This document shows positions 18,515 to 26,764 of a DNA stretch of 64,000 nucleotides, piece after piece (the stretch's first letter is position 1; each line of letters opens with the position of its first letter). The notes beneath the pieces were generated by a model that was given only the letters and a program-made list of their open reading frames with translations, did no database searches and was not told where the DNA came from. The translations under genes and the position numbers were made by a program. Origin of the DNA: Flavobacteriales bacterium (GTDB lineage Bacteria > Bacteroidota > Bacteroidia > Palsa-965); NCBI GenBank assembly GCA_040377305.1, contig JBEIPA010000004.1, positions 96,001 to 160,000 of the forward strand. The letters run 5' to 3'.

Positions 18515-20410
18515 ATGCGGAAGTATTTCCTGTTTCTGTTCACCCTGCTTTCCCTGAATGCAAGCTCGCAATCAGCTGCCGATTATATCAAACAATCGGA
18601 TGCAATCTATTCTGCAAATCCGGACTCTTCGCTGGTGTTGTGCGAAAAGGCATTGGAAATAGCGAACGCTAAGGGTGATTCTGCAAACATCGCTTACGCA
18701 AAAGCGAAATGTTCCCGCTATCACATTCTGAAGTCGGATTTTGAGAATGCAACTGCCTGCCTGAATGCCGCTATTGAAATTCAGCAGCGTCACGACTACA
18801 AAAGCGGACTCGCCTACTCGTATAAGCTTAAAGCAATCATGCAGAAGCGAATCGGCAATACGGCTGATGCGCTTCGCCTCCAACAAGAGGCTGTTGAGCT
18901 TTACAGAGAAGATGGCGACATCTACGGCATGTGCTCTGTACTGATCAATCTTACCCTCGATTACATTGAAGGAAAACAATTTGATCTCGCTGAAGCGGCA
19001 CTGGATACAATCGCGGCGCACCCGGAAGGTCTTTTAGAATCGGCTTCGTATTTCTATTGGCAGAATCGGGGTTCATTACAGGCCGCACGCGAAGATTTCT
19101 CCGGCGCCTTGGTTTTTTATGACTCGGCAAAAGTGATTGCGCTGAAGTACGATCTGGTGGATAGCTATGTGACGTTGCTATCACTCATTGGAACTGCACA
19201 CATAAAACTCGGCAAACTCGACGCTGCTGAAATCGCATTGCTGGAAAGCTGCGAACTGGCGCGCGAAAACAATCTCGATCACGAATTGAATGAATCGCTT
19301 ACAGTGCTCGCACAACTCTACGTTTCCAGGGGCGATTTCAAAAATGCGTACCTCGCCAACAAAGAACAAACCGATCTCGCCACGAAAATTTACAACATCG
19401 ATCGTATCAACAAGATCAATGAGCTGGAGAAAAAGCTGGAACTCGCCGAGAAAGAAAAAACCATCGCAGAACAGAACATCACAATCGCTGAAGAAGAAGC
19501 GCAGAAGAAAGAACTCGAACAACGGAATTTTCTCCTGGGCATTGTTGTCGGCGCTGTAGCGCTTATAGCCGGACTGCTCACTTTCCTGTTCGTTCGCACA
19601 CGCATGCTCAATACGAGAATCGCGAAACAGAATGTGCTCATCGAAGACGCGTACTCCAAAATCCGCGACAGCATAACGTATAGTCGCAAGATTCAAACCG
19701 CTATGTTGCCGACGAATGAAACGATCTCCTCTTACCTTCCGAAGTCCTTTGTGTTGTACGAACCACGTGATATTGTAAGCGGAGATTTCTACTGGTTCGA
19801 CAAGCGCGCAGAAGAAATTCTCTTTGCGGCTGCCGATTGTACGGGACATGGCGTTCCCGGTGCTTTCCTCAGCATTGTTGGATATAATCACATTCACCAG
19901 GCCGTGAATATTTACAACATCACTTCACCGGAGAAAATTCTCGATCGGGTGCGTGAAGATGTTTCTGAAACACTGAAACAGTACGACGACAATGCTGCAA
20001 ACGATGGAATGGACGTTTCGATTTGCGCGGTGAATCGCTCAACGAATGTTTTGAAATTCGCCGGAGCTAATCATGCTGCATGGATTCTTCGCGGTGAAAC
20101 AATTCACGAACTGAGGGGCGATAATCAGCCCATCGGTGCGTACCCCGGACAAGAAATTCTCCCGTACAAGCTGCAGGAATTTCAGCTGGAGAAAAAAGAT
20201 CGCATCTATTTGTTCAGCGATGGTTATACGGATCAGTTCGGCGGAGAGAAGGGCGGAAAGTTCAAGAGCAAACAGCTCAAAGAGATTTTGATTGCATCAC
20301 GCACCGAATCTCTTCCGCAGCAGAAAGAATCTCTCCTCCAAACACTTCGTAAGTGGCAAGGATCGTATGAACAGATTGATGATGTGCTGGTGATCGGAAT
20401 CGAAATCTGA
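18515..20410 (+). CDS. Membrane sensor with extracytoplasmic TPR region, TM helix and SpoIIE/PP2C Ser/Thr phosphatase
   Basis: Signal peptide; TPR helices; TM FLLGIVVGAVALIAGLL; motifs VSGDFY, ADCTGHGVPGA, FSDG, IDDVL. Confidence 0.92.
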   Translation: MRKYFLFLFTLLSLNASSQSAADYIKQSDAIYSANPDSSLVLCEKALEIANAKGDSANIAYAKAKCSRYHILKSDFENATACLNAAIEIQQRHDYKSGLAYSYKLKAIMQKRIGNTADALRLQQEAVELYREDGDIYGMCSVLINLTLDYIEGKQFDLAEAALDTIAAHPEGLLESASYFYWQNRGSLQAAREDFSGALVFYDSAKVIALKYDLVDSYVTLLSLIGTAHIKLGKLDAAEIALLESCELARENNLDHELNESLTVLAQLYVSRGDFKNAYLANKEQTDLATKIYNIDRINKINELEKKLELAEKEKTIAEQNITIAEEEAQKKELEQRNFLLGIVVGAVALIAGLLTFLFVRTRMLNTRIAKQNVLIEDAYSKIRDSITYSRKIQTAMLPTNETISSYLPKSFVLYEPRDIVSGDFYWFDKRAEEILFAAADCTGHGVPGAFLSIVGYNHIHQAVNIYNITSPEKILDRVREDVSETLKQYDDNAANDGMDVSICAVNRSTNVLKFAGANHAAWILRGETIHELRGDNQPIGAYPGQEILPYKLQEFQLEKKDRIYLFSDGYTDQFGGEKGGKFKSKQLKEILIASRTESLPQQKESLLQTLRKWQGSYEQIDDVLVIGIEI

Positions 20411-21346
20411 TTACCGCATTTTCGCGAAAACAAAATTCCCGCCTTCATCGCCCATCACACGCAAGTGACCGTAACGCGGAACTTGTCCGCAGGCTTCATA
20501 CACTTGTGGCAATACATGCCCGGCCATCATGTCCATTGTGAATGCCGCGTTCGCTCCGGAAAGAAATTCATTCACGTAATATGCAAACGGACTGTGCTCT
20601 CCGTCTCCATCTGTTACAGTCGACAATCGTCCGGAAACAAATGCCTCACGCGATGGCGTTTGATTAAGAATGTCCAGATAACTCATTTGCTGATCGGGTG
20701 TGAACCCGCGGATATGAACTCCGGATGAATCGTGATCTTCCTGGATTGCATTCGAAGAGGCGCGTGCTGCACTGTCGCTGAGGTAAACCGCGCGACGATC
20801 ATCGAATATGCTGGAGCTGTAACAGGCGTCAATGAACATCACAACATGCAATGCAGAATTTGTTGCAAGTCCGTGCGACCGAAGTTGCTCACAGGAAATA
20901 AACGAAGACGTTTTTGATCCTCCATCACTCGGAATCCAAAAACCCATATCTGTTTTTTCGCTGTAGTAACCGTGACCTGCGAAGTAAATGATCAGATTGT
21001 CTTTCTCCTTCATCGAGCGCGCAAGGAAAAGCAAAGTATCCAGAATATTTTTGCGCGTTGCTATGGAGTCCGACAAGATGATGCTGTTCTTTCTCCCGAA
21101 ATGATATTCGGTCTGCAGCTCAGTGCAAATGGAAATCATATCACCATTCGCGTTTTTCAGATCCTTCCACACAGCGTTTGAATCGTAATTGGAAATACCG
21201 ATTCCGAACAACCAGTTTCTTCCCGGTGATTCGCTGATCCAGCTACCGTCATTCAACTTCGCATTCTCGCGCGCATCACACATGTTCGTGTACGCGTAGA
21301 CAAACAAGATGAGGATAGCGGCTAATGCAAGACGTGATATTCGCAT
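20411..21346 (-). CDS. Exported or anchored peptidase C14 (caspase/metacaspase-like)
   Basis: IGISNY, dyad YFAGHG and IDACYS, HSPF; hydrophobic N-terminus; start reassigned to MRISRL. Confidence 0.88.
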   Translation of the reverse strand: MRISRLALAAILILFVYAYTNMCDARENAKLNDGSWISESPGRNWLFGIGISNYDSNAVWKDLKNANGDMISICTELQTEYHFGRKNSIILSDSIATRKNILDTLLFLARSMKEKDNLIIYFAGHGYYSEKTDMGFWIPSDGGSKTSSFISCEQLRSHGLATNSALHVVMFIDACYSSSIFDDRRAVYLSDSAARASSNAIQEDHDSSGVHIRGFTPDQQMSYLDILNQTPSREAFVSGRLSTVTDGDGEHSPFAYYVNEFLSGANAAFTMDMMAGHVLPQVYEACGQVPRYGHLRVMGDEGGNFVFAKMR

Positions 21347-21474
21347 TTCATTTTCTCTTTCAACTATGGTTTTAAATCGCTTCAGCGATCGCACCGTGTC
21401 TCATTGGGCCATGGGCATTAGCACCCAACGCCTCCGGTTCTCCGCGTCGCCGTGTAAAGCGCCGCAGGCAACCT

Positions 21475-23754
21475 CTACTTTCTCTCTTTCGGATCGGCGC
21501 TCAGCACCTGCAGCTTTCTCACGCACCACATTTCACTCGTGACCGCTGGAGGATCTTCTGTAAAGCTTCTTGTCTTCGAACCATAGTTGCGCATCATGTT
21601 TGTAAGCGGACTCGAACTAGTCTTCGCAGGTCCACGCTCTAACACACCATCTGACCGGAAAATATCTGCCGGCAGTGGCGTTTCCGATGCAACCATGAAG
21701 TAGGTATCATATCCGTAAGGTTTTGAAACATTGAATCCGAGCTTTTCTCCTCCCGGAGTTTTCTCCAATGGAATCATGCGCTGACTCTGCCACTTGCCGC
21801 GATATTCTATTTTGTTTCCGTCGCCCAATTCCGGACGAGGATATAAGAGCGCCATCTTTCCGTTTGCGTCTACACCAAATACGTTGATGTAACGTGAACA
21901 ATAGAACGGCTTGAAGTTTACGGTGTCAAGCACGAGTACAAGTTCGAGACGATCGCCGCCGTAAACTGTTTCGCCGGGAGCAACAACACCACCATCCTTG
22001 CGCTTCAATCCGAGATAATATGGAAACTCATCTGGCGGAGATGCAAGATTCATCCACGCATTTAATTTTCCGAGACGGATTGCATAGTTGGCTACGGAGT
22101 CTGCGCCTTTCGCTGCCTGGTCGCCACCAATCCACGAAGAACGTAAAGGCAATCCTAGATTCGATGCGGTATCTGTCTTCGAAAGGTTCGGACGGATAAG
22201 CGCGTACTCTAATCTCCCATTGCTTCTTCCTGCGATGATATAATTTGCCGACATAGGATCGCTTGTGAAATCAATTGCAGAGTTGTCGGTGCCTGCACCA
22301 ATCTTCGTATGAAGTGCAGCATCAAATTCTTTTGTTGGTGGTAGTTGAAGTGAAACAGTTGCGCCCTTACGGATATTTTTCTTCAGCTCTTTGTCTGTGA
22401 GTGAAGCAAGCGTGGTGATCTTGTCTTTGCCCGCTTGTGAAATCATCCAGTGATTGATGTGATACTGAATCACGTATTCAGGAACCGCTTCGGTCTGATC
22501 TTTTACCTGAACACAATGTCCGGATGCGAATAGCGCCTGCACCGGTGCGATTGCTGCGAGCAGTTCCGTTGCAGACATGGTTGCTGCCGGTGCCCACAAT
22601 AAAAGTGTTGGACGATCGGGAGTAACCCAGTTGAGCATTTCTACAATGTCTCCGGGTTGAAACGACTTAACGTCACCGCTCACCACATTTGCAATGCTTG
22701 TTCCGATACCGGCAACTGAAATTACTTCGAGCGTATCTTTTCCGTCTGGTCGCGCGAAACGACATCCCGGATAAATAGAAAGCTCGAATCCTCCGCGAAG
22801 GCGAACGTGTCCATCAACAATTTCCTGAACGCCAACTACAGTTTTCGTTTTTGCGTCGGAAACAGGTTGACCAAACAGTGTTGCGTTCTTTCTCGTGTCA
22901 TTCGCTCCCAGCACCGGATCCTGAAACTTTGGTCCTCCATCCGATTTCAGATTCGCAACAATACGAGTGAAAATCATTTGTGCGCTCTCATTTGAAGTTG
23001 AGCTGTTGATTGCGCGTATGAATGCTAACGTAAATGCACCGTGTGAAATTCCATCAGCGTCTACAGCTTCTTTCGCTGTCTGATCACGTTGCGCAGCGCT
23101 GAACACCAGTGCACCACGCTCTTCAATGTTTGGAGATTTGCTGTCGTCGTTCGCGTCGAAGTTCAGTGGTGGCGCCTGGCGAGCGATGTATTGAACGGGC
23201 AAACTGTTCCCGCGCGCAATTCCTCCGCTGTGACAACAATCGTAGATCAATGTAAGTGTCACTCCTTTATCGAGAAACTGATTGAACAGCGGCGCGAGTT
23301 CTTTGTTGCGAATGTCCCACAAATCAGAAGGCACCATGGTTTGATCCTGTCCGGTGCCATCGTACGAGCGACTGTTTTTCACTTGAGATCCGTGTCCTGC
23401 GTAATAAATTAAAACAACATCACCAGCTGCCGGCTGGCATTTGCTGATCATGTTGTTGATTGCATTCAGAATGGACTCATGTGTTGCCTGACGGTTCATG
23501 AGTGTATCTATATTCTCATTCATGAAACCATACCGCGCCATGATGAGTTGCTTCACCGAACGCGCATCGTTTACACAGCCCGATAGATTTTGCCATCCCG
23601 CACGCTCTGCAGTGCCTCGTTGTGCGAACGCAGCCGGAGTTTGTTTGGTTTCTTCGTACGTGTCTATGCCGATAATGAGCGCACGTTTAACTCCGGCGTT
23701 AAGTGTTGTGACCGCGAGTAAGAGAATCAGGGAACTGACGAGATACTTTTTCAT
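21475..23754 (-). CDS. Exported peptidase C14 with C-terminal DUF4384-like domain
   Basis: Signal peptide; RALIIGIDTY, GCVNDA, YYAGHG, YDCCHSG, HGAFT; C-terminal GDRLEL...YINVF..D.NG..LLYP. Confidence 0.9.
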   Translation of the reverse strand: MKKYLVSSLILLLAVTTLNAGVKRALIIGIDTYEETKQTPAAFAQRGTAERAGWQNLSGCVNDARSVKQLIMARYGFMNENIDTLMNRQATHESILNAINNMISKCQPAAGDVVLIYYAGHGSQVKNSRSYDGTGQDQTMVPSDLWDIRNKELAPLFNQFLDKGVTLTLIYDCCHSGGIARGNSLPVQYIARQAPPLNFDANDDSKSPNIEERGALVFSAAQRDQTAKEAVDADGISHGAFTLAFIRAINSSTSNESAQMIFTRIVANLKSDGGPKFQDPVLGANDTRKNATLFGQPVSDAKTKTVVGVQEIVDGHVRLRGGFELSIYPGCRFARPDGKDTLEVISVAGIGTSIANVVSGDVKSFQPGDIVEMLNWVTPDRPTLLLWAPAATMSATELLAAIAPVQALFASGHCVQVKDQTEAVPEYVIQYHINHWMISQAGKDKITTLASLTDKELKKNIRKGATVSLQLPPTKEFDAALHTKIGAGTDNSAIDFTSDPMSANYIIAGRSNGRLEYALIRPNLSKTDTASNLGLPLRSSWIGGDQAAKGADSVANYAIRLGKLNAWMNLASPPDEFPYYLGLKRKDGGVVAPGETVYGGDRLELVLVLDTVNFKPFYCSRYINVFGVDANGKMALLYPRPELGDGNKIEYRGKWQSQRMIPLEKTPGGEKLGFNVSKPYGYDTYFMVASETPLPADIFRSDGVLERGPAKTSSSPLTNMMRNYGSKTRSFTEDPPAVTSEMWCVRKLQVLSADPKERK

Positions 23755-23854
23755 GTTGGGATATGCTGTTGTGAGTATTACAAATTTACGTGTTTGCAAT
23801 TCTTGTTCCGCAGTTGCGATTCACAATCACACTTAAGTGGTAGTGTTTAAAACA

Positions 23855-23890
23855 GAAGATTCGAATACTCTTTCGAATATTCGAATCTTC
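23855..23890 (-). terminator. 13-bp perfect stem after the small exported protein gene
   Basis: GAAGATTCGAATA...TATTCGAATCTTC followed by TGTTTT on the minus strand. Confidence 0.65.
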
Positions 23891-23931
23891 AAATCGGAGG
23901 TGTTAGGATTATATCCTGACACTAGGCATTT

Positions 23932-24351
23932 TTACTCGCGGAGGTTAACCCACCAATCAGAGTAGCAGTCTCCGCTGTTCTCCCAGTAGAAAGATCCACC
24001 TGAAGTTTCAGCATACCAGCTTGTCCAGCCACCGTATACCCATACTTCGCCAGTTCCCCAAGGCTCAACATAGCCTTTGAAGTTACCGTCAACGTAGATC
24101 TTAACCCAGTATCCAGTGTAGTTGTCAAAAGTAAGGTGACACTCACTTGCAGATCCGCGCTCAGCTGGCTTAGGTGCCGCAACGTCTGTAGTAGGAACAT
24201 CAGTCTTAACTTTGTCCTTACCGCGTGCAGCTCCGCCGGCCATTTTAGTTGCTTTAACGTCTTTTACAACGTGTTCCTTCTTTCCAGATTGCGCATTTGC
24301 AACTCCGAAAGACAGTACTGCGATAAGCAGCATAAAAAGATGTTTTCTCAT
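23932..24351 (-). CDS. Small exported protein: signal peptide, low-complexity pro-region with two RG motifs, Trp/Tyr-rich beta domain
   Basis: Signal ending ANA-Q; AARG at R43 and AERG at R65; 74-aa C-terminal domain with 2 Cys; own TATATTTG promoter box at 24386-24393. Confidence 0.85.
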   Translation of the reverse strand: MRKHLFMLLIAVLSFGVANAQSGKKEHVVKDVKATKMAGGAARGKDKVKTDVPTTDVAAPKPAERGSASECHLTFDNYTGYWVKIYVDGNFKGYVEPWGTGEVWVYGGWTSWYAETSGGSFYWENSGDCYSDWWVNLRE

Positions 24352-24440
24352 AGTAGTTAGTTGGTTTGGTTATGATGTTACAACGCAAATATATATGTTT
24401 AGATTCGTCAGTCGGTATGCCAATTGTCATTTTCACACCT

Positions 24441-24553
24441 AAGTAGTAATACATTTACTGGGCGGTAACAATCTGGAATATTTGAATGCGCGTATTCTTA
24501 TATAAATCAGCACCATTCGGCGCACAAAGTCACGTATACGTATAAATACGTAT
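24441..24553. promoter_or_regulatory. GTA-N4-TAC sites in the divergent promoter of the caspase cluster
   Basis: GTAGTAATAC at 24443-24452; ATACGTA-TAAA-TACGTAT at 24536-24553. Confidence 0.5.
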
Positions 24554-24634
24554 TCTCTTTTTTGCATCTGCGGAATGCTTTTTGTGACATTGATTTGATT
24601 AATTTTATGTTCCACAAAAAAACCTAACCAACTC

Positions 24635-26422
24635 ATGTTTCTCTCTTTCAGAAATATTATTCTTCTGCTTGCCGGATTATTCCTGCAGGGAAGTGTGGTG
24701 GCTCAAGGGGAGGGCGATTCGAAAGTGTTCTTTCTTGGAATCGGAATTGAAAAGTGCCTGAACGGCACACCAGGGAAGTCAAATGCAGTTGCCGATGTGC
24801 AGCTCGTTCTGAATCGCACCAAAAAAGACGCACAAAGCGGAGATGTAAACTTCAATCACGACGGCTCTTCGTTGATGGTAAGCAAGGCGGTTTGCTATAC
24901 CTTGTTTAACGATCAGGCTACGCTCCGAAATATCGATTCATTGGTCAATGTAATCAAGCTCACTGCCCGACCACAAGATGTTTTCTATTTGTATATCAGT
25001 GCGCAAACCACGGGACTTAATGGCAGTTTCACGATCCCGGCCGATCCCGCAAGTGCGAAAAAAGGTAAGACAGTTGCGCCTCAGCGAATTGTTCTCGAGT
25101 CTTCTCACCTCAAAGAATTATGCGAATCGGTACAATGTGAAAGTCAGATTCTCGTAGCCGATGCTGTTACCTGGCAGGAAAATCACGACGTGCTGCTAAC
25201 TGCACTTCTGGCTCCTGCTGCCAAAGGAAAAAATCAGATTATTGTGGCTCCATTTACTGAATCAACAGATTCATTTCTTGTTGCAGGGAAATACGTGAGC
25301 GCCTTCGCCGGATCAATCTACAATGCGGGACAATCGCTCCTGCGACTACTCGTTAAGAACGGAACCGTTACGGAGAAAGTAAAAACTTCAATGAACAATG
25401 CATACAATGCATTGACGGGGAGCGATGACATGATCGCGGCGGTTTATGAGTCCTGGAAATTAGTGGAAGGATCTGTTGGGCCGTCGATTGCGAAAGTGAC
25501 GCCTGCCGATCAAACCAAAGTTGCAGCACAGCCAGCACCGACCACTCCAAATCTTGGTCGTGGCTTCGAAGAAGATCAGCCTGCTCCGGTTGGACAACAG
25601 TATTCGTTGAAGGACACAAAACATTTTGCGCTCATTGTTGCAAACTGGCAGTATAATGATCCAGATTGGCAGGACCTGAATAATCCGATTAACGATGCGC
25701 TTGCCTTAAAAGCTGAACTTGAAACGTACTACGGATTTGAAGTGAAACTCTGTACAAACCTCACGAAAGAGGGAATGGAAACAGAGATTATCAGCTTACA
25801 CAAACGCAATCTTGGTCCTAACAGCCAGGTACTATTTTACTTCGCCGGACATGGTGGGTACCAGCAGCTTGGTGCAAACGCAGGTACCGGTTACCTCGTG
25901 CCTGTTGATGGAAAATCACAGCGCCTCGACTCAACCATGAGCAGCTATTACAGTTATGATGTTCTGAAAGCGAGACTGCTCTCACTTCCTTCACAACACG
26001 TGCTGGCAATGATCGATGCTTGTTATTCCGGCTCGGCAGATCCTAGTGTGTTTAACAAGAAAGACGGAGCTGCGGGAAATGAACTGGCGCAAGCGGGTAC
26101 AGAACTCAAACGCGGAACCGTAACAGCGCAGATGAATGAATGCATGCTGAAGCGGTCGCGGTATTTTATTTGCTCGGGCAAGCTGGAAGAAGTGAAAGAT
26201 GGTGTGAAGGGTGGTTTGTCCCCCTTCGCTAAAGTGATCACAGATCGTCTTGCGCTTATGAGAAAACGTGATCTCAACGATCAGGAAATAGTATTCGGCG
26301 CTGAACTTGAGATTGCACTCTCTAAAACGAAAGAGATTAATTCCTACGCTTTCTCATTTGGAAATAGCAATGAATCGACATCCAGCTTCATGTTTGTTCC
26401 TCCTGCGCATCGCATCAAATAG
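24635..26422 (+). CDS. Exported tandem C14 protein: degenerate N-terminal caspase-like domain plus intact C-terminal domain
   Basis: N-domain has FLGIGIEK, NAVADV, YISAQT, VADAV (no His/Cys); C-domain has NPINDA, YFAGHG, IDACYSG, LSPF. Confidence 0.88.
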   Translation: MFLSFRNIILLLAGLFLQGSVVAQGEGDSKVFFLGIGIEKCLNGTPGKSNAVADVQLVLNRTKKDAQSGDVNFNHDGSSLMVSKAVCYTLFNDQATLRNIDSLVNVIKLTARPQDVFYLYISAQTTGLNGSFTIPADPASAKKGKTVAPQRIVLESSHLKELCESVQCESQILVADAVTWQENHDVLLTALLAPAAKGKNQIIVAPFTESTDSFLVAGKYVSAFAGSIYNAGQSLLRLLVKNGTVTEKVKTSMNNAYNALTGSDDMIAAVYESWKLVEGSVGPSIAKVTPADQTKVAAQPAPTTPNLGRGFEEDQPAPVGQQYSLKDTKHFALIVANWQYNDPDWQDLNNPINDALALKAELETYYGFEVKLCTNLTKEGMETEIISLHKRNLGPNSQVLFYFAGHGGYQQLGANAGTGYLVPVDGKSQRLDSTMSSYYSYDVLKARLLSLPSQHVLAMIDACYSGSADPSVFNKKDGAAGNELAQAGTELKRGTVTAQMNECMLKRSRYFICSGKLEEVKDGVKGGLSPFAKVITDRLALMRKRDLNDQEIVFGAELEIALSKTKEINSYAFSFGNSNESTSSFMFVPPAHRIK

Positions 26423-26428
26423 CTTATC

Positions 26429-26764
26429 GTGCTGATCATTACTGACGAAGCGGAATCATTCTCTATTCTCGAATCTTTCGCCGCTGCTGAATTTGACTAC
26501 TCCGTACAGCACGCGAAATTTTTCCGCTCACCGGAAAAAGTCGTTTTCTTTTTGTTTTGTCCCGACGGTATAATGAAAGGTGCGCGTGTTTTCGTATTCG
26601 ACAATCCTCCAATTGCCGGAGAAATCGAGACTGATTTGCTCAAAATCATAATGTCGTTTAATGGAGATAAACACGCCGATCTGCTTCGTGAGCATGCATC
26701 GGAAGTGATTCGCGAACATCTCGAAACTAAAGGAGCTGACCACTACTTCTTCGACGCACATTAA
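26429..26764 (+). CDS. Hypothetical protein (111 aa)
   Basis: GTG ORF 6 bp after the caspase stop; no family recognised. Confidence 0.55.
   Translation: MLIITDEAESFSILESFAAAEFDYSVQHAKFFRSPEKVVFFLFCPDGIMKGARVFVFDNPPIAGEIETDLLKIIMSFNGDKHADLLREHASEVIREHLETKGADHYFFDAH

Follow-up and report, generated by a model that had tools for sequence, protein, structure and literature searches.

The region examined covers positions 18515 to 26422 of a 64,000-nucleotide stretch of a Flavobacteriales genome (contig JBEIPA010000004.1, positions 96,001 to 160,000; hereafter the window) and holds five genes, among them those of a predicted exported metacaspase of peptidase family C14 and of a small neighbouring protein that is its candidate substrate. 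Open reading frames were located as given in a preliminary description of the same DNA. On the reverse strand lie the genes of a 311-aa C14 protease (20411..21346), of a 759-aa metacaspase combining C14 and DUF4384 domains (21475..23754) and of the 139-aa small protein (23932..24351), which is an open reading frame with no Pfam match. The forward strand carries the gene of a protein with a TPR region, one transmembrane segment (residues ~339-361) and a SpoIIE domain (18515..20410) and that of a 595-aa C14 protein with a dyad-less caspase-like domain followed by an active C14 domain (24635..26422), assigned by Pfam and, in the latter case, also by local profiles. The preliminary description gave lengths of 774 and 327 aa for the two reverse-strand proteases, counted from an upstream TTG (23799) and GTG (21394), whereas counting from the probable ATG codons yields 759 and 311 aa. 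A REP-like dispersed repeat between these genes (21376-21475; 34 blastn matches at E<=1e-3 in the same genome, self included) overlaps the upstream GTG of the 311-aa gene, and the ATG at 21346 is therefore favoured. As that description had stated, three C14 proteases with intact His/Cys dyads and hydrophobic N-termini flank the small protein, which was confirmed by Pfam, alignments and a crude hydropathy test (best 12-residue Kyte-Doolittle mean of 2.4-2.9 in the three proteases and the small protein).

The neighbourhood of the small gene was analyzed in 100 loci, including the window and a second copy in the same genome, which were annotated with local profiles and a Pfam check on representatives and reduced to 85 non-redundant loci; one of the 85 comes from an unpublished genome, whose removal shifts the counts by at most 1. 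According to their records, the loci include ones from Bacteroidota of several orders, from Acidobacteriota and from one Elusimicrobia bin. The co-clustering with C14 genes expected from the preliminary description was found: any C14 gene lay within 600 bp of the small gene in 55/85 loci and a C14-DUF4384 gene in 48/85, while within 9 kb there was a C14 gene in 67/85, at least two in 36/85 and at least three in 17/85. Of the 40 loci whose flanks reach the full 9 kb, 34 contain a C14 gene; no C14 gene was seen near the small gene in 18/85 loci, 11 of which have one flank shorter than 5 kb. Among 401 sampled genomes of the class, for which 10 candidates were scored per genome and 33 of the 52 matching genomes were dropped as weak partial matches (E > 5e-6, mostly N-terminal), a full-length small gene was present in 19 genomes from nine families. 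All 19 carried a C14-DUF4384 protease (E<=8.6e-113), including the 4/4 genomes in which the small gene lies apart from the protease and whose proteases were outside the query alignment. What is conserved is a gene pair encoding the small protein and the C14-DUF4384 metacaspase.

The small protein has a predicted signal peptide (A20|Q21), a pro-region with two Arg-Gly (RG) sites and a β-sandwich (residues 70-139) containing Cys71 and Cys129. The first site, RG1 (R43-G44; codons at 24220..24225, reverse strand), is RG in 86/140 homologs, KG in 16 and another Arg pair in 17, and the second, RG2 (R65-G66; 24154..24159, reverse strand), which lies six residues before Cys71, is RG in 89/140, another Arg pair in 19 and KG in 13. 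These counts refer to alignment A2, which holds 140 of 163 sequences, with 23 near-duplicates, fragments or over-long entries left out; the family comprises 15 close homologs and 392 clusters at 50% identity, the best 150 of which were listed. Alignments A2 and A3 were too diverse to serve in the locus search. Gln follows the signal peptide in 133/140 members, consistent with the Q-rule of Bacteroidetes (PMC5837995). The 140 linkers contain 189 RG against 27.3±4.7 in 1000 shuffles, an enrichment that is partly circular because the profile used to collect the homologs itself contained RG. At least one linker RG is present in 116/140 proteins and both sites are RG in 61/140, with a median spacing of 24 residues between the two sites, and the residue before the linker Arg is most often Ser or Thr (158/342). 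The segment between the sites is also conserved, with an N-I-K motif, a Pro in 93/140 and an Asp in 103/140.

Cys71 and Cys129 co-vary in the family (both in 111 members, neither in 20, one in 9), and a disulfide between them is predicted to close the β-sandwich. The AlphaFold2 model (predicted local distance difference test, pLDDT, of 90) shows a seven-strand sandwich at 70-139, an extra strand at 26-33 and an ordered segment at 51-60 (pLDDT 94) that is predicted to dock on the domain, with both RG sites in loops. Fold searches gave no match at E<=0.001. The best match (Z 6.8, root-mean-square deviation 3.6, 76 aligned residues) was to transthyretin-like β-sandwich domains, such as the pVHL β domain, the HGSNAT luminal domain and a carboxypeptidase D domain, to which residues 64-139 bear a weak likeness; with Z < 8 and 7-16% identity this reflects a common arrangement and assigns no family. 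Similarly, Pfam found no family common to more than 2/140 members, NCBIfam matched 0/5 small proteins and the Atlas clusters share no Pfam family. The automatic Atlas name of the top cluster, "Beta/Gamma crystallin family protein", had no Pfam support and was not adopted. The second copy of the small protein in the same genome (G000:C15:4158-4571) lies downstream of parA/parB with no caspase nearby and has RG1 only, a Cys-Gly-Gly-Cys stretch replacing RG2; another genome (G007:C127, locus L023) also has a copy near parA/parB.

The 759-aa protein matches PF00656 with 95.5 bits and consists of p20 and p10 regions, unnamed middle domains and a C-terminal DUF4384. For the middle region (300-575) only leads < 0.9 were obtained. 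The closest solved structures are AtMC9, AtMC4 and Yca1 (Foldseek E of 1e-15 to AtMC9), and alignment of its profile to Yca1 50-338 and TbMCA2 89-347 indicates that a p10 follows the p20. The catalytic residues are H121 and C174, with pocket residues D63 and D172 and a pocket Cys at C60; H121, D172, C174, R181 and G182 are invariant in 55 orthologs, and D63 is likewise invariant. A two-Asp acidic S1 pocket, predicted to confer Arg/Lys specificity, is present in all three proteases as judged from sequence (at the equivalent motifs, D69/D173 in the 311-aa and D354/D461 in the 595-aa protein). C14 enzymes other than caspases cut after Arg or Lys (PMC5756287), and fungal and plant metacaspases cleave their own linkers at such residues (PMC9622860, PMC12122906), so that the same specificity and self-cleavage would be expected of the 759-aa protease as a member of this family.

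Conserved basic sites fall in its p20-p10 linker and in a C-terminal loop. R181-G182 (IARG; 23209..23214, reverse strand), at Cys+7, is RG in 55/55 orthologs, and R213-G214 (ERG; 23113..23118, reverse strand), just before the first p10 strand, is exact RG in 16/55; at position 213 the basic residue is kept in 51/54 (Arg 43, Lys 8) and the Gly is not. A C-terminal pair, R707-G708 and R729-S730 (21565..21636, reverse strand), lies before the last DUF4384 strand, with R707 in 46/54 and R729 in 52/54 orthologs and exact RG in 40 and 42 of 55, respectively. In the structure model pLDDT falls below 50 exactly at 175-189 and 703-739, the predicted disordered loops that hold RG sites, and the last 75 residues of the orthologs contain 103 RG against 20.5±4.2 expected. 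All the recurring RG motifs listed in the preliminary description exist, and those at both small-protein sites, IARG and ERG707 are conserved; on the other hand, QRG46 is RG in only 9/55 orthologs, the GRG/KRG of the 595-aa and the IRG of the 311-aa protein are not RG in most orthologs, and the conserved basic site R729 was missing from that list. Over the three proteases and the small protein, Gly follows 11/71 Arg residues, against 6.2% in the exported proteins of the genome (p=0.004), a modest enrichment. Taken separately, the 311-aa (1/14) and 595-aa (2/16) proteins do not exceed chance; in the SpoIIE protein itself 4/26 Arg are followed by Gly.

With a probability of roughly 0.5, the 759-aa C14-DUF4384 protein is an Arg-specific convertase acting outside the inner membrane and its 139-aa neighbour is a substrate cleaved on the C-terminal side of Arg at each of two Arg-Gly sites. 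From the genes, the dyads, the acidic pocket, the two-gene linkage and the RG conservation described above we infer cleavage of the small protein. The three proteases and the small protein would be exported by the Sec pathway and signal peptidase I (Sec/SPI) and would stay in the periplasm, as suggested by the absence from all four, by Pfam, of the sorting domain of the type IX secretion system (T9SS; PF18962), which three neighbouring proteins match. The protease would process itself at the basic p20-p10 linker sites R181, R192 and R213 and at the DUF4384-loop sites R707 and R729, and its cuts in the small protein would fall at R43|G and R65|G. The latter cuts would free or loosen the conserved 22-aa segment and leave a disulfide-closed 74-aa β-sandwich. 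A 16-pair hairpin followed by a T-rich run, resembling an intrinsic terminator, separates the small gene from the C14-DUF4384 gene (23855..23890, reverse strand), and strong hairpins lie 3' of the small gene in 12 of the 21 loci with the protease gene directly downstream, suggesting that transcription of the small gene ends at a terminator of its own and that its product is probably made in excess of the protease. A scan for sigma-70 promoters was at chance level (9 against 10.9). Prediction of a complex between the mature 759-aa and small proteins scored 0.00 against a mark of 0.32; the controls did not fold, and the score carries no weight in either direction.

No gene for a dedicated receptor of a released peptide is constant. 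Within 9 kb of the small gene CHASE2, the commonest membrane partner in other loci, was found in 13/85 loci, FecR-like and trypsin-like genes in 12/85 each, CHAT in 10/85, genes of extracytoplasmic function (ECF) sigma factors in 8/85 and SpoIIE in 1/85. The label FecR-like is our own, given from the domain architecture; Pfam finds only a TPR there. Because no receptor gene is constant, the best guess for the target of the cut product would be the protease module itself, and the CHASE2/FecR-like, ECF or trypsin-like modules may be optional outputs in other lineages. Aligned RG sites occur in the trypsin-like (12/12) and FecR-like (11/12) partner families, and the CHASE2 partners have no conserved RG.

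Several observations weigh against the convertase interpretation. Many of the 85 loci come from related Chitinophagaceae, and the loci do not count as independent; the RG content of the collecting profile has been mentioned; moreover, 24/140 small proteins have no linker RG. The small protein had been described as a dedicated substrate, which holds in so far as every sampled genome with a full-length small gene has the protease (19/19); the reverse does not hold, as 13 of the 32 genomes that match the protease strongly yielded no small gene, including the five of them that were searched again in depth. No CHASE2, FecR-like or CHAT gene was found in the genome itself by the searches run, which agrees with the earlier statement that no CHAT partner is visible here, but that statement does not extend to the related loci, where CHAT does occur. 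The 311- and 595-aa proteases (NANGD and NPIND, against GCVND in the 759-aa protein) are without the pocket Cys, whose loss (TbMC2 Cys92, AtMC9 Cys29) lowers activity in AtMC9 and TbMC2 (PMC5756287).

R181 is the most conserved of the protease sites and is ambiguous, because position Cys+7 is Asp in Yca1, corresponds to the calcium ligand Asp245 of CgMCA-I (PMC9622860) and is Arg in a signal-less C14 protein elsewhere in the same genome; the invariant R181 site may be structural and not a cut site. The full set of Asp residues of the p20 calcium site is not present in the 759-aa family, Cys+7 being Arg in 54/54 orthologs and a second Asp position being replaced by Lys at 151 in 39/54. The place of R181 at the calcium-ligand position of fungal metacaspases would fit a different view, in which RG serves for docking or has a structural role, or is the target of a different protease, for instance a linked trypsin-like one, with the caspases as partners only. 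The trypsin-like genes in 12 of the 85 loci and the frequent replacement of RG by KG or other Arg pairs would also fit. This view appears improbable to us: trypsin-like genes are missing from most loci whereas C14-DUF4384 is near-constant, and the RG sites fall in predicted loops.

The small protein could also be a bait-loop inhibitor or decoy that restrains the exported metacaspase, its RG loops entering the active site and maturation not being the purpose. Such a role would agree with the one-way dependence of the small gene on the protease (19/19 genomes), with its own terminator and the tandem copies (2 to 4) seen in several loci, with the predicted docking of the segment between the RG sites, which would constrain both loops, and with the lack of a constant receptor gene. 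We nevertheless hold it to be rather unlikely. The same RG code is found in loops of the protease itself and in the trypsin-like and FecR-like partner proteins, as would suit a general signal for processing, and Pfam, NCBIfam and fold searches, which are of limited reach, gave no match to an inhibitor family.

The module is patchy, being present in 6/26 genomes of the same genus and in 19/401 of the class, and the related loci show gene shuffling, with WD40-, TPR- and CHAT-fused proteases near the small gene. These features would suit an envelope conflict or defence system in which the proteases are switched on by damage or by an invader and the small domain, once matured, serves as effector or alarm. 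Cytoplasmic caspase defence systems of bacteria include gasdermin-linked, EACC1-type and CRISPR-linked CHAT systems. These place a caspase-fold protease beside a candidate substrate, as here; they differ in that all parts of the present system appear exported. None of the PADLOC models matches the small protein; for the proteases the sole match is the generic caspase model, over the catalytic domain. Against the EACC1-associated caspase model NF047832 the three proteases score 52.6, 44.0 and 47.6 bits, far below the cut-off of 140, and no toxin-like fold was matched. No gasdermin was found among the nine window proteins scanned with Pfam or the five scanned with PADLOC. A defence function seems unlikely, although it can be compatible with the convertase interpretation.

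Other genes recur near the small gene or near related caspases. Exported thioredoxin-like proteins lie within 6 kb in 12/85 loci (e.g. L097:5777-6955), and might hold the catalytic Cys in its reduced state or introduce the disulfide of the small protein; small TPR proteins occur in 9. An exported ~500-aa trypsin-like protease in 12 loci (e.g. L030:6326-7843) has an invariant RG near residue 53 that is a candidate activation site. At L021:13606-15748 a CHASE2 protein of ~390 aa with no Pfam output domain precedes a FecR-like/TPR protein in which an RG is conserved, and a pair similar by eye directly follows C14-DUF4384 in seven genomes of one genus (L159-L165), there without the small gene. A 128-aa exported protein with an Asn-Arg-Gly motif and no Pfam match lies near caspases in five loci (e.g. 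L118:6855-7241). Elsewhere in the same genome (G000:C24:11679-24498) a signal-less C14 gene stands beside genes that by eye encode an AAA ATPase, a calpain-like protein and a 1684-aa polymorphic-toxin-like protein; this looks like a separate conflict locus.

The other two proteases of the window are less constant than the C14-DUF4384 protein. The 311-aa protein has a single C14 domain with the dyad H125/C175, and orthologs of its type were found in two other related loci, in neither of which its IRG was aligned. The 595-aa protein carries the dyad H406/C463, preceded by the dyad-less caspase-like domain, which the preliminary description had not reported and which rests on local profiles and a weak C14 score, profile-profile comparison showing only the active domain. 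Its type was found in seven other loci, two of them cut by contig ends; the linker GRG is RG in 3/5 informative orthologs, and the KRG keeps its Arg and not its Gly in four complete orthologs. Adjoining its gene, a 111-aa gene (26429-26764) has no Pfam or NCBIfam match, and genes of this type adjoin the 3' end of the pseudo-caspase/caspase gene in four loci of the same lineage. The 311- and 595-aa proteases are best read as accessory members of the module formed by the 759-aa protease and the small protein, and the three-protease cascade proposed previously was not borne out.

The same proposal had the matured small protein read out by the adjacent TPR-SpoIIE protein. The stops of the SpoIIE and 311-aa genes do abut, at 20410/20411, and the TPR region faces the periplasm. 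Among the contigs of sequencing runs that align to the region, which carry no information on expression, one long contig spans this junction; its run may be the source run. However, the two genes converge and the 595-aa gene points away from the small gene, so that the cluster does not form one operon. The genome encodes 51 membrane SpoIIE/PP2C paralogs, many with TPR regions, which gives a chance of ~2.5% that one of two flanks carries one. The single locus of 85 with SpoIIE near the small gene is the window itself, and the profile used, which found 10/10 control loci, detected only the window among the 100 loci. Five cluster-bearing relatives have 15 to 44 SpoIIE paralogs at a stricter cut-off, none on the contig of the cluster, with a best full-length identity of about 32%. 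In one relative (G015) the order is kinase, two-component pair, T9SS genes, small C14, C14-DUF4384, small genes and pseudo-C14, and SpoIIE is absent from this syntenic locus, where the T9SS genes run straight into a 326-aa C14 gene. The TPR-SpoIIE protein was therefore rejected as receptor and placed outside the system; its gene is best read as a chance neighbour, adjacent in this genome alone. A three-protease zymogen cascade that matures the small protein for readout by TPR-SpoIIE is thus very improbable.

The 759-aa protease shares with the metacaspases and orthocaspases of peptidase family C14B (AtMC9, AtMC4, Yca1, CgMCA-I, TbMCA2, MaOC1 and GSU0716) the p20 and p10 fold, the His-Cys dyad, the acidic pocket and basic linker residues. 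It differs from them in its signal peptide, a middle region of ~270 aa with no name, the DUF4384, a fixed genomic partner and the presence of Arg (R181) and Lys (151) at two calcium-site Asp positions. In the plant pairs AtMC9-GRIM REAPER-PRK5 and AtMC4-PROPEP1-PEPR a metacaspase cuts a precursor after Arg, in the GRI case extracellularly (PMC12122906). The two proteins described here would work alike; they are bacterial, the candidate precursor is an unrelated folded β-sandwich that contains two sites, and none of the possible receptor genes is constant. Many prokaryotic metacaspases carry N-terminal helices resembling signal peptides, and Bacteroidetes operons with up to three metacaspases occur (PMC3501461), yet the available part of that paper names no substrate, RG motif or small partner family for them. 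In the largely open-access literature covered, we found no substrate, cut-site or RG code, or partner family of this kind for exported bacterial metacaspases. Such proteases were reportedly noted in 2012. The conserved protease-partner pair, with its sharp cut-site predictions, is real and apparently undescribed.

In its widest form, which we regard as possible and hold only tentatively, the interpretation would extend to many Bacteroidota and some Acidobacteriota. A periplasmic prohormone-convertase system would there rest on an exported, calcium-independent metacaspase that recognizes a Ser/Thr-Arg-Gly code. This enzyme would activate both itself and partner proteases and would cut a conserved peptide of ~22 aa out of a secreted precursor made in abundance. 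Such a system would be the bacterial counterpart of phytocytokine processing by plant metacaspases, and CHASE2/FecR-like or ECF modules would be its interchangeable outputs. The locus reduces to a small two-protein system, a single protease and a 14-kDa candidate substrate in which two cut sites are predicted, and environmental cultured carriers exist, for example Flavobacterium fluvii DSM 19978 (L103) and Lutibacter agarilyticus DSM 29150 (L102). If true, the convertase interpretation would give caspase-fold proteases a non-death, convertase-type role in the bacterial envelope.

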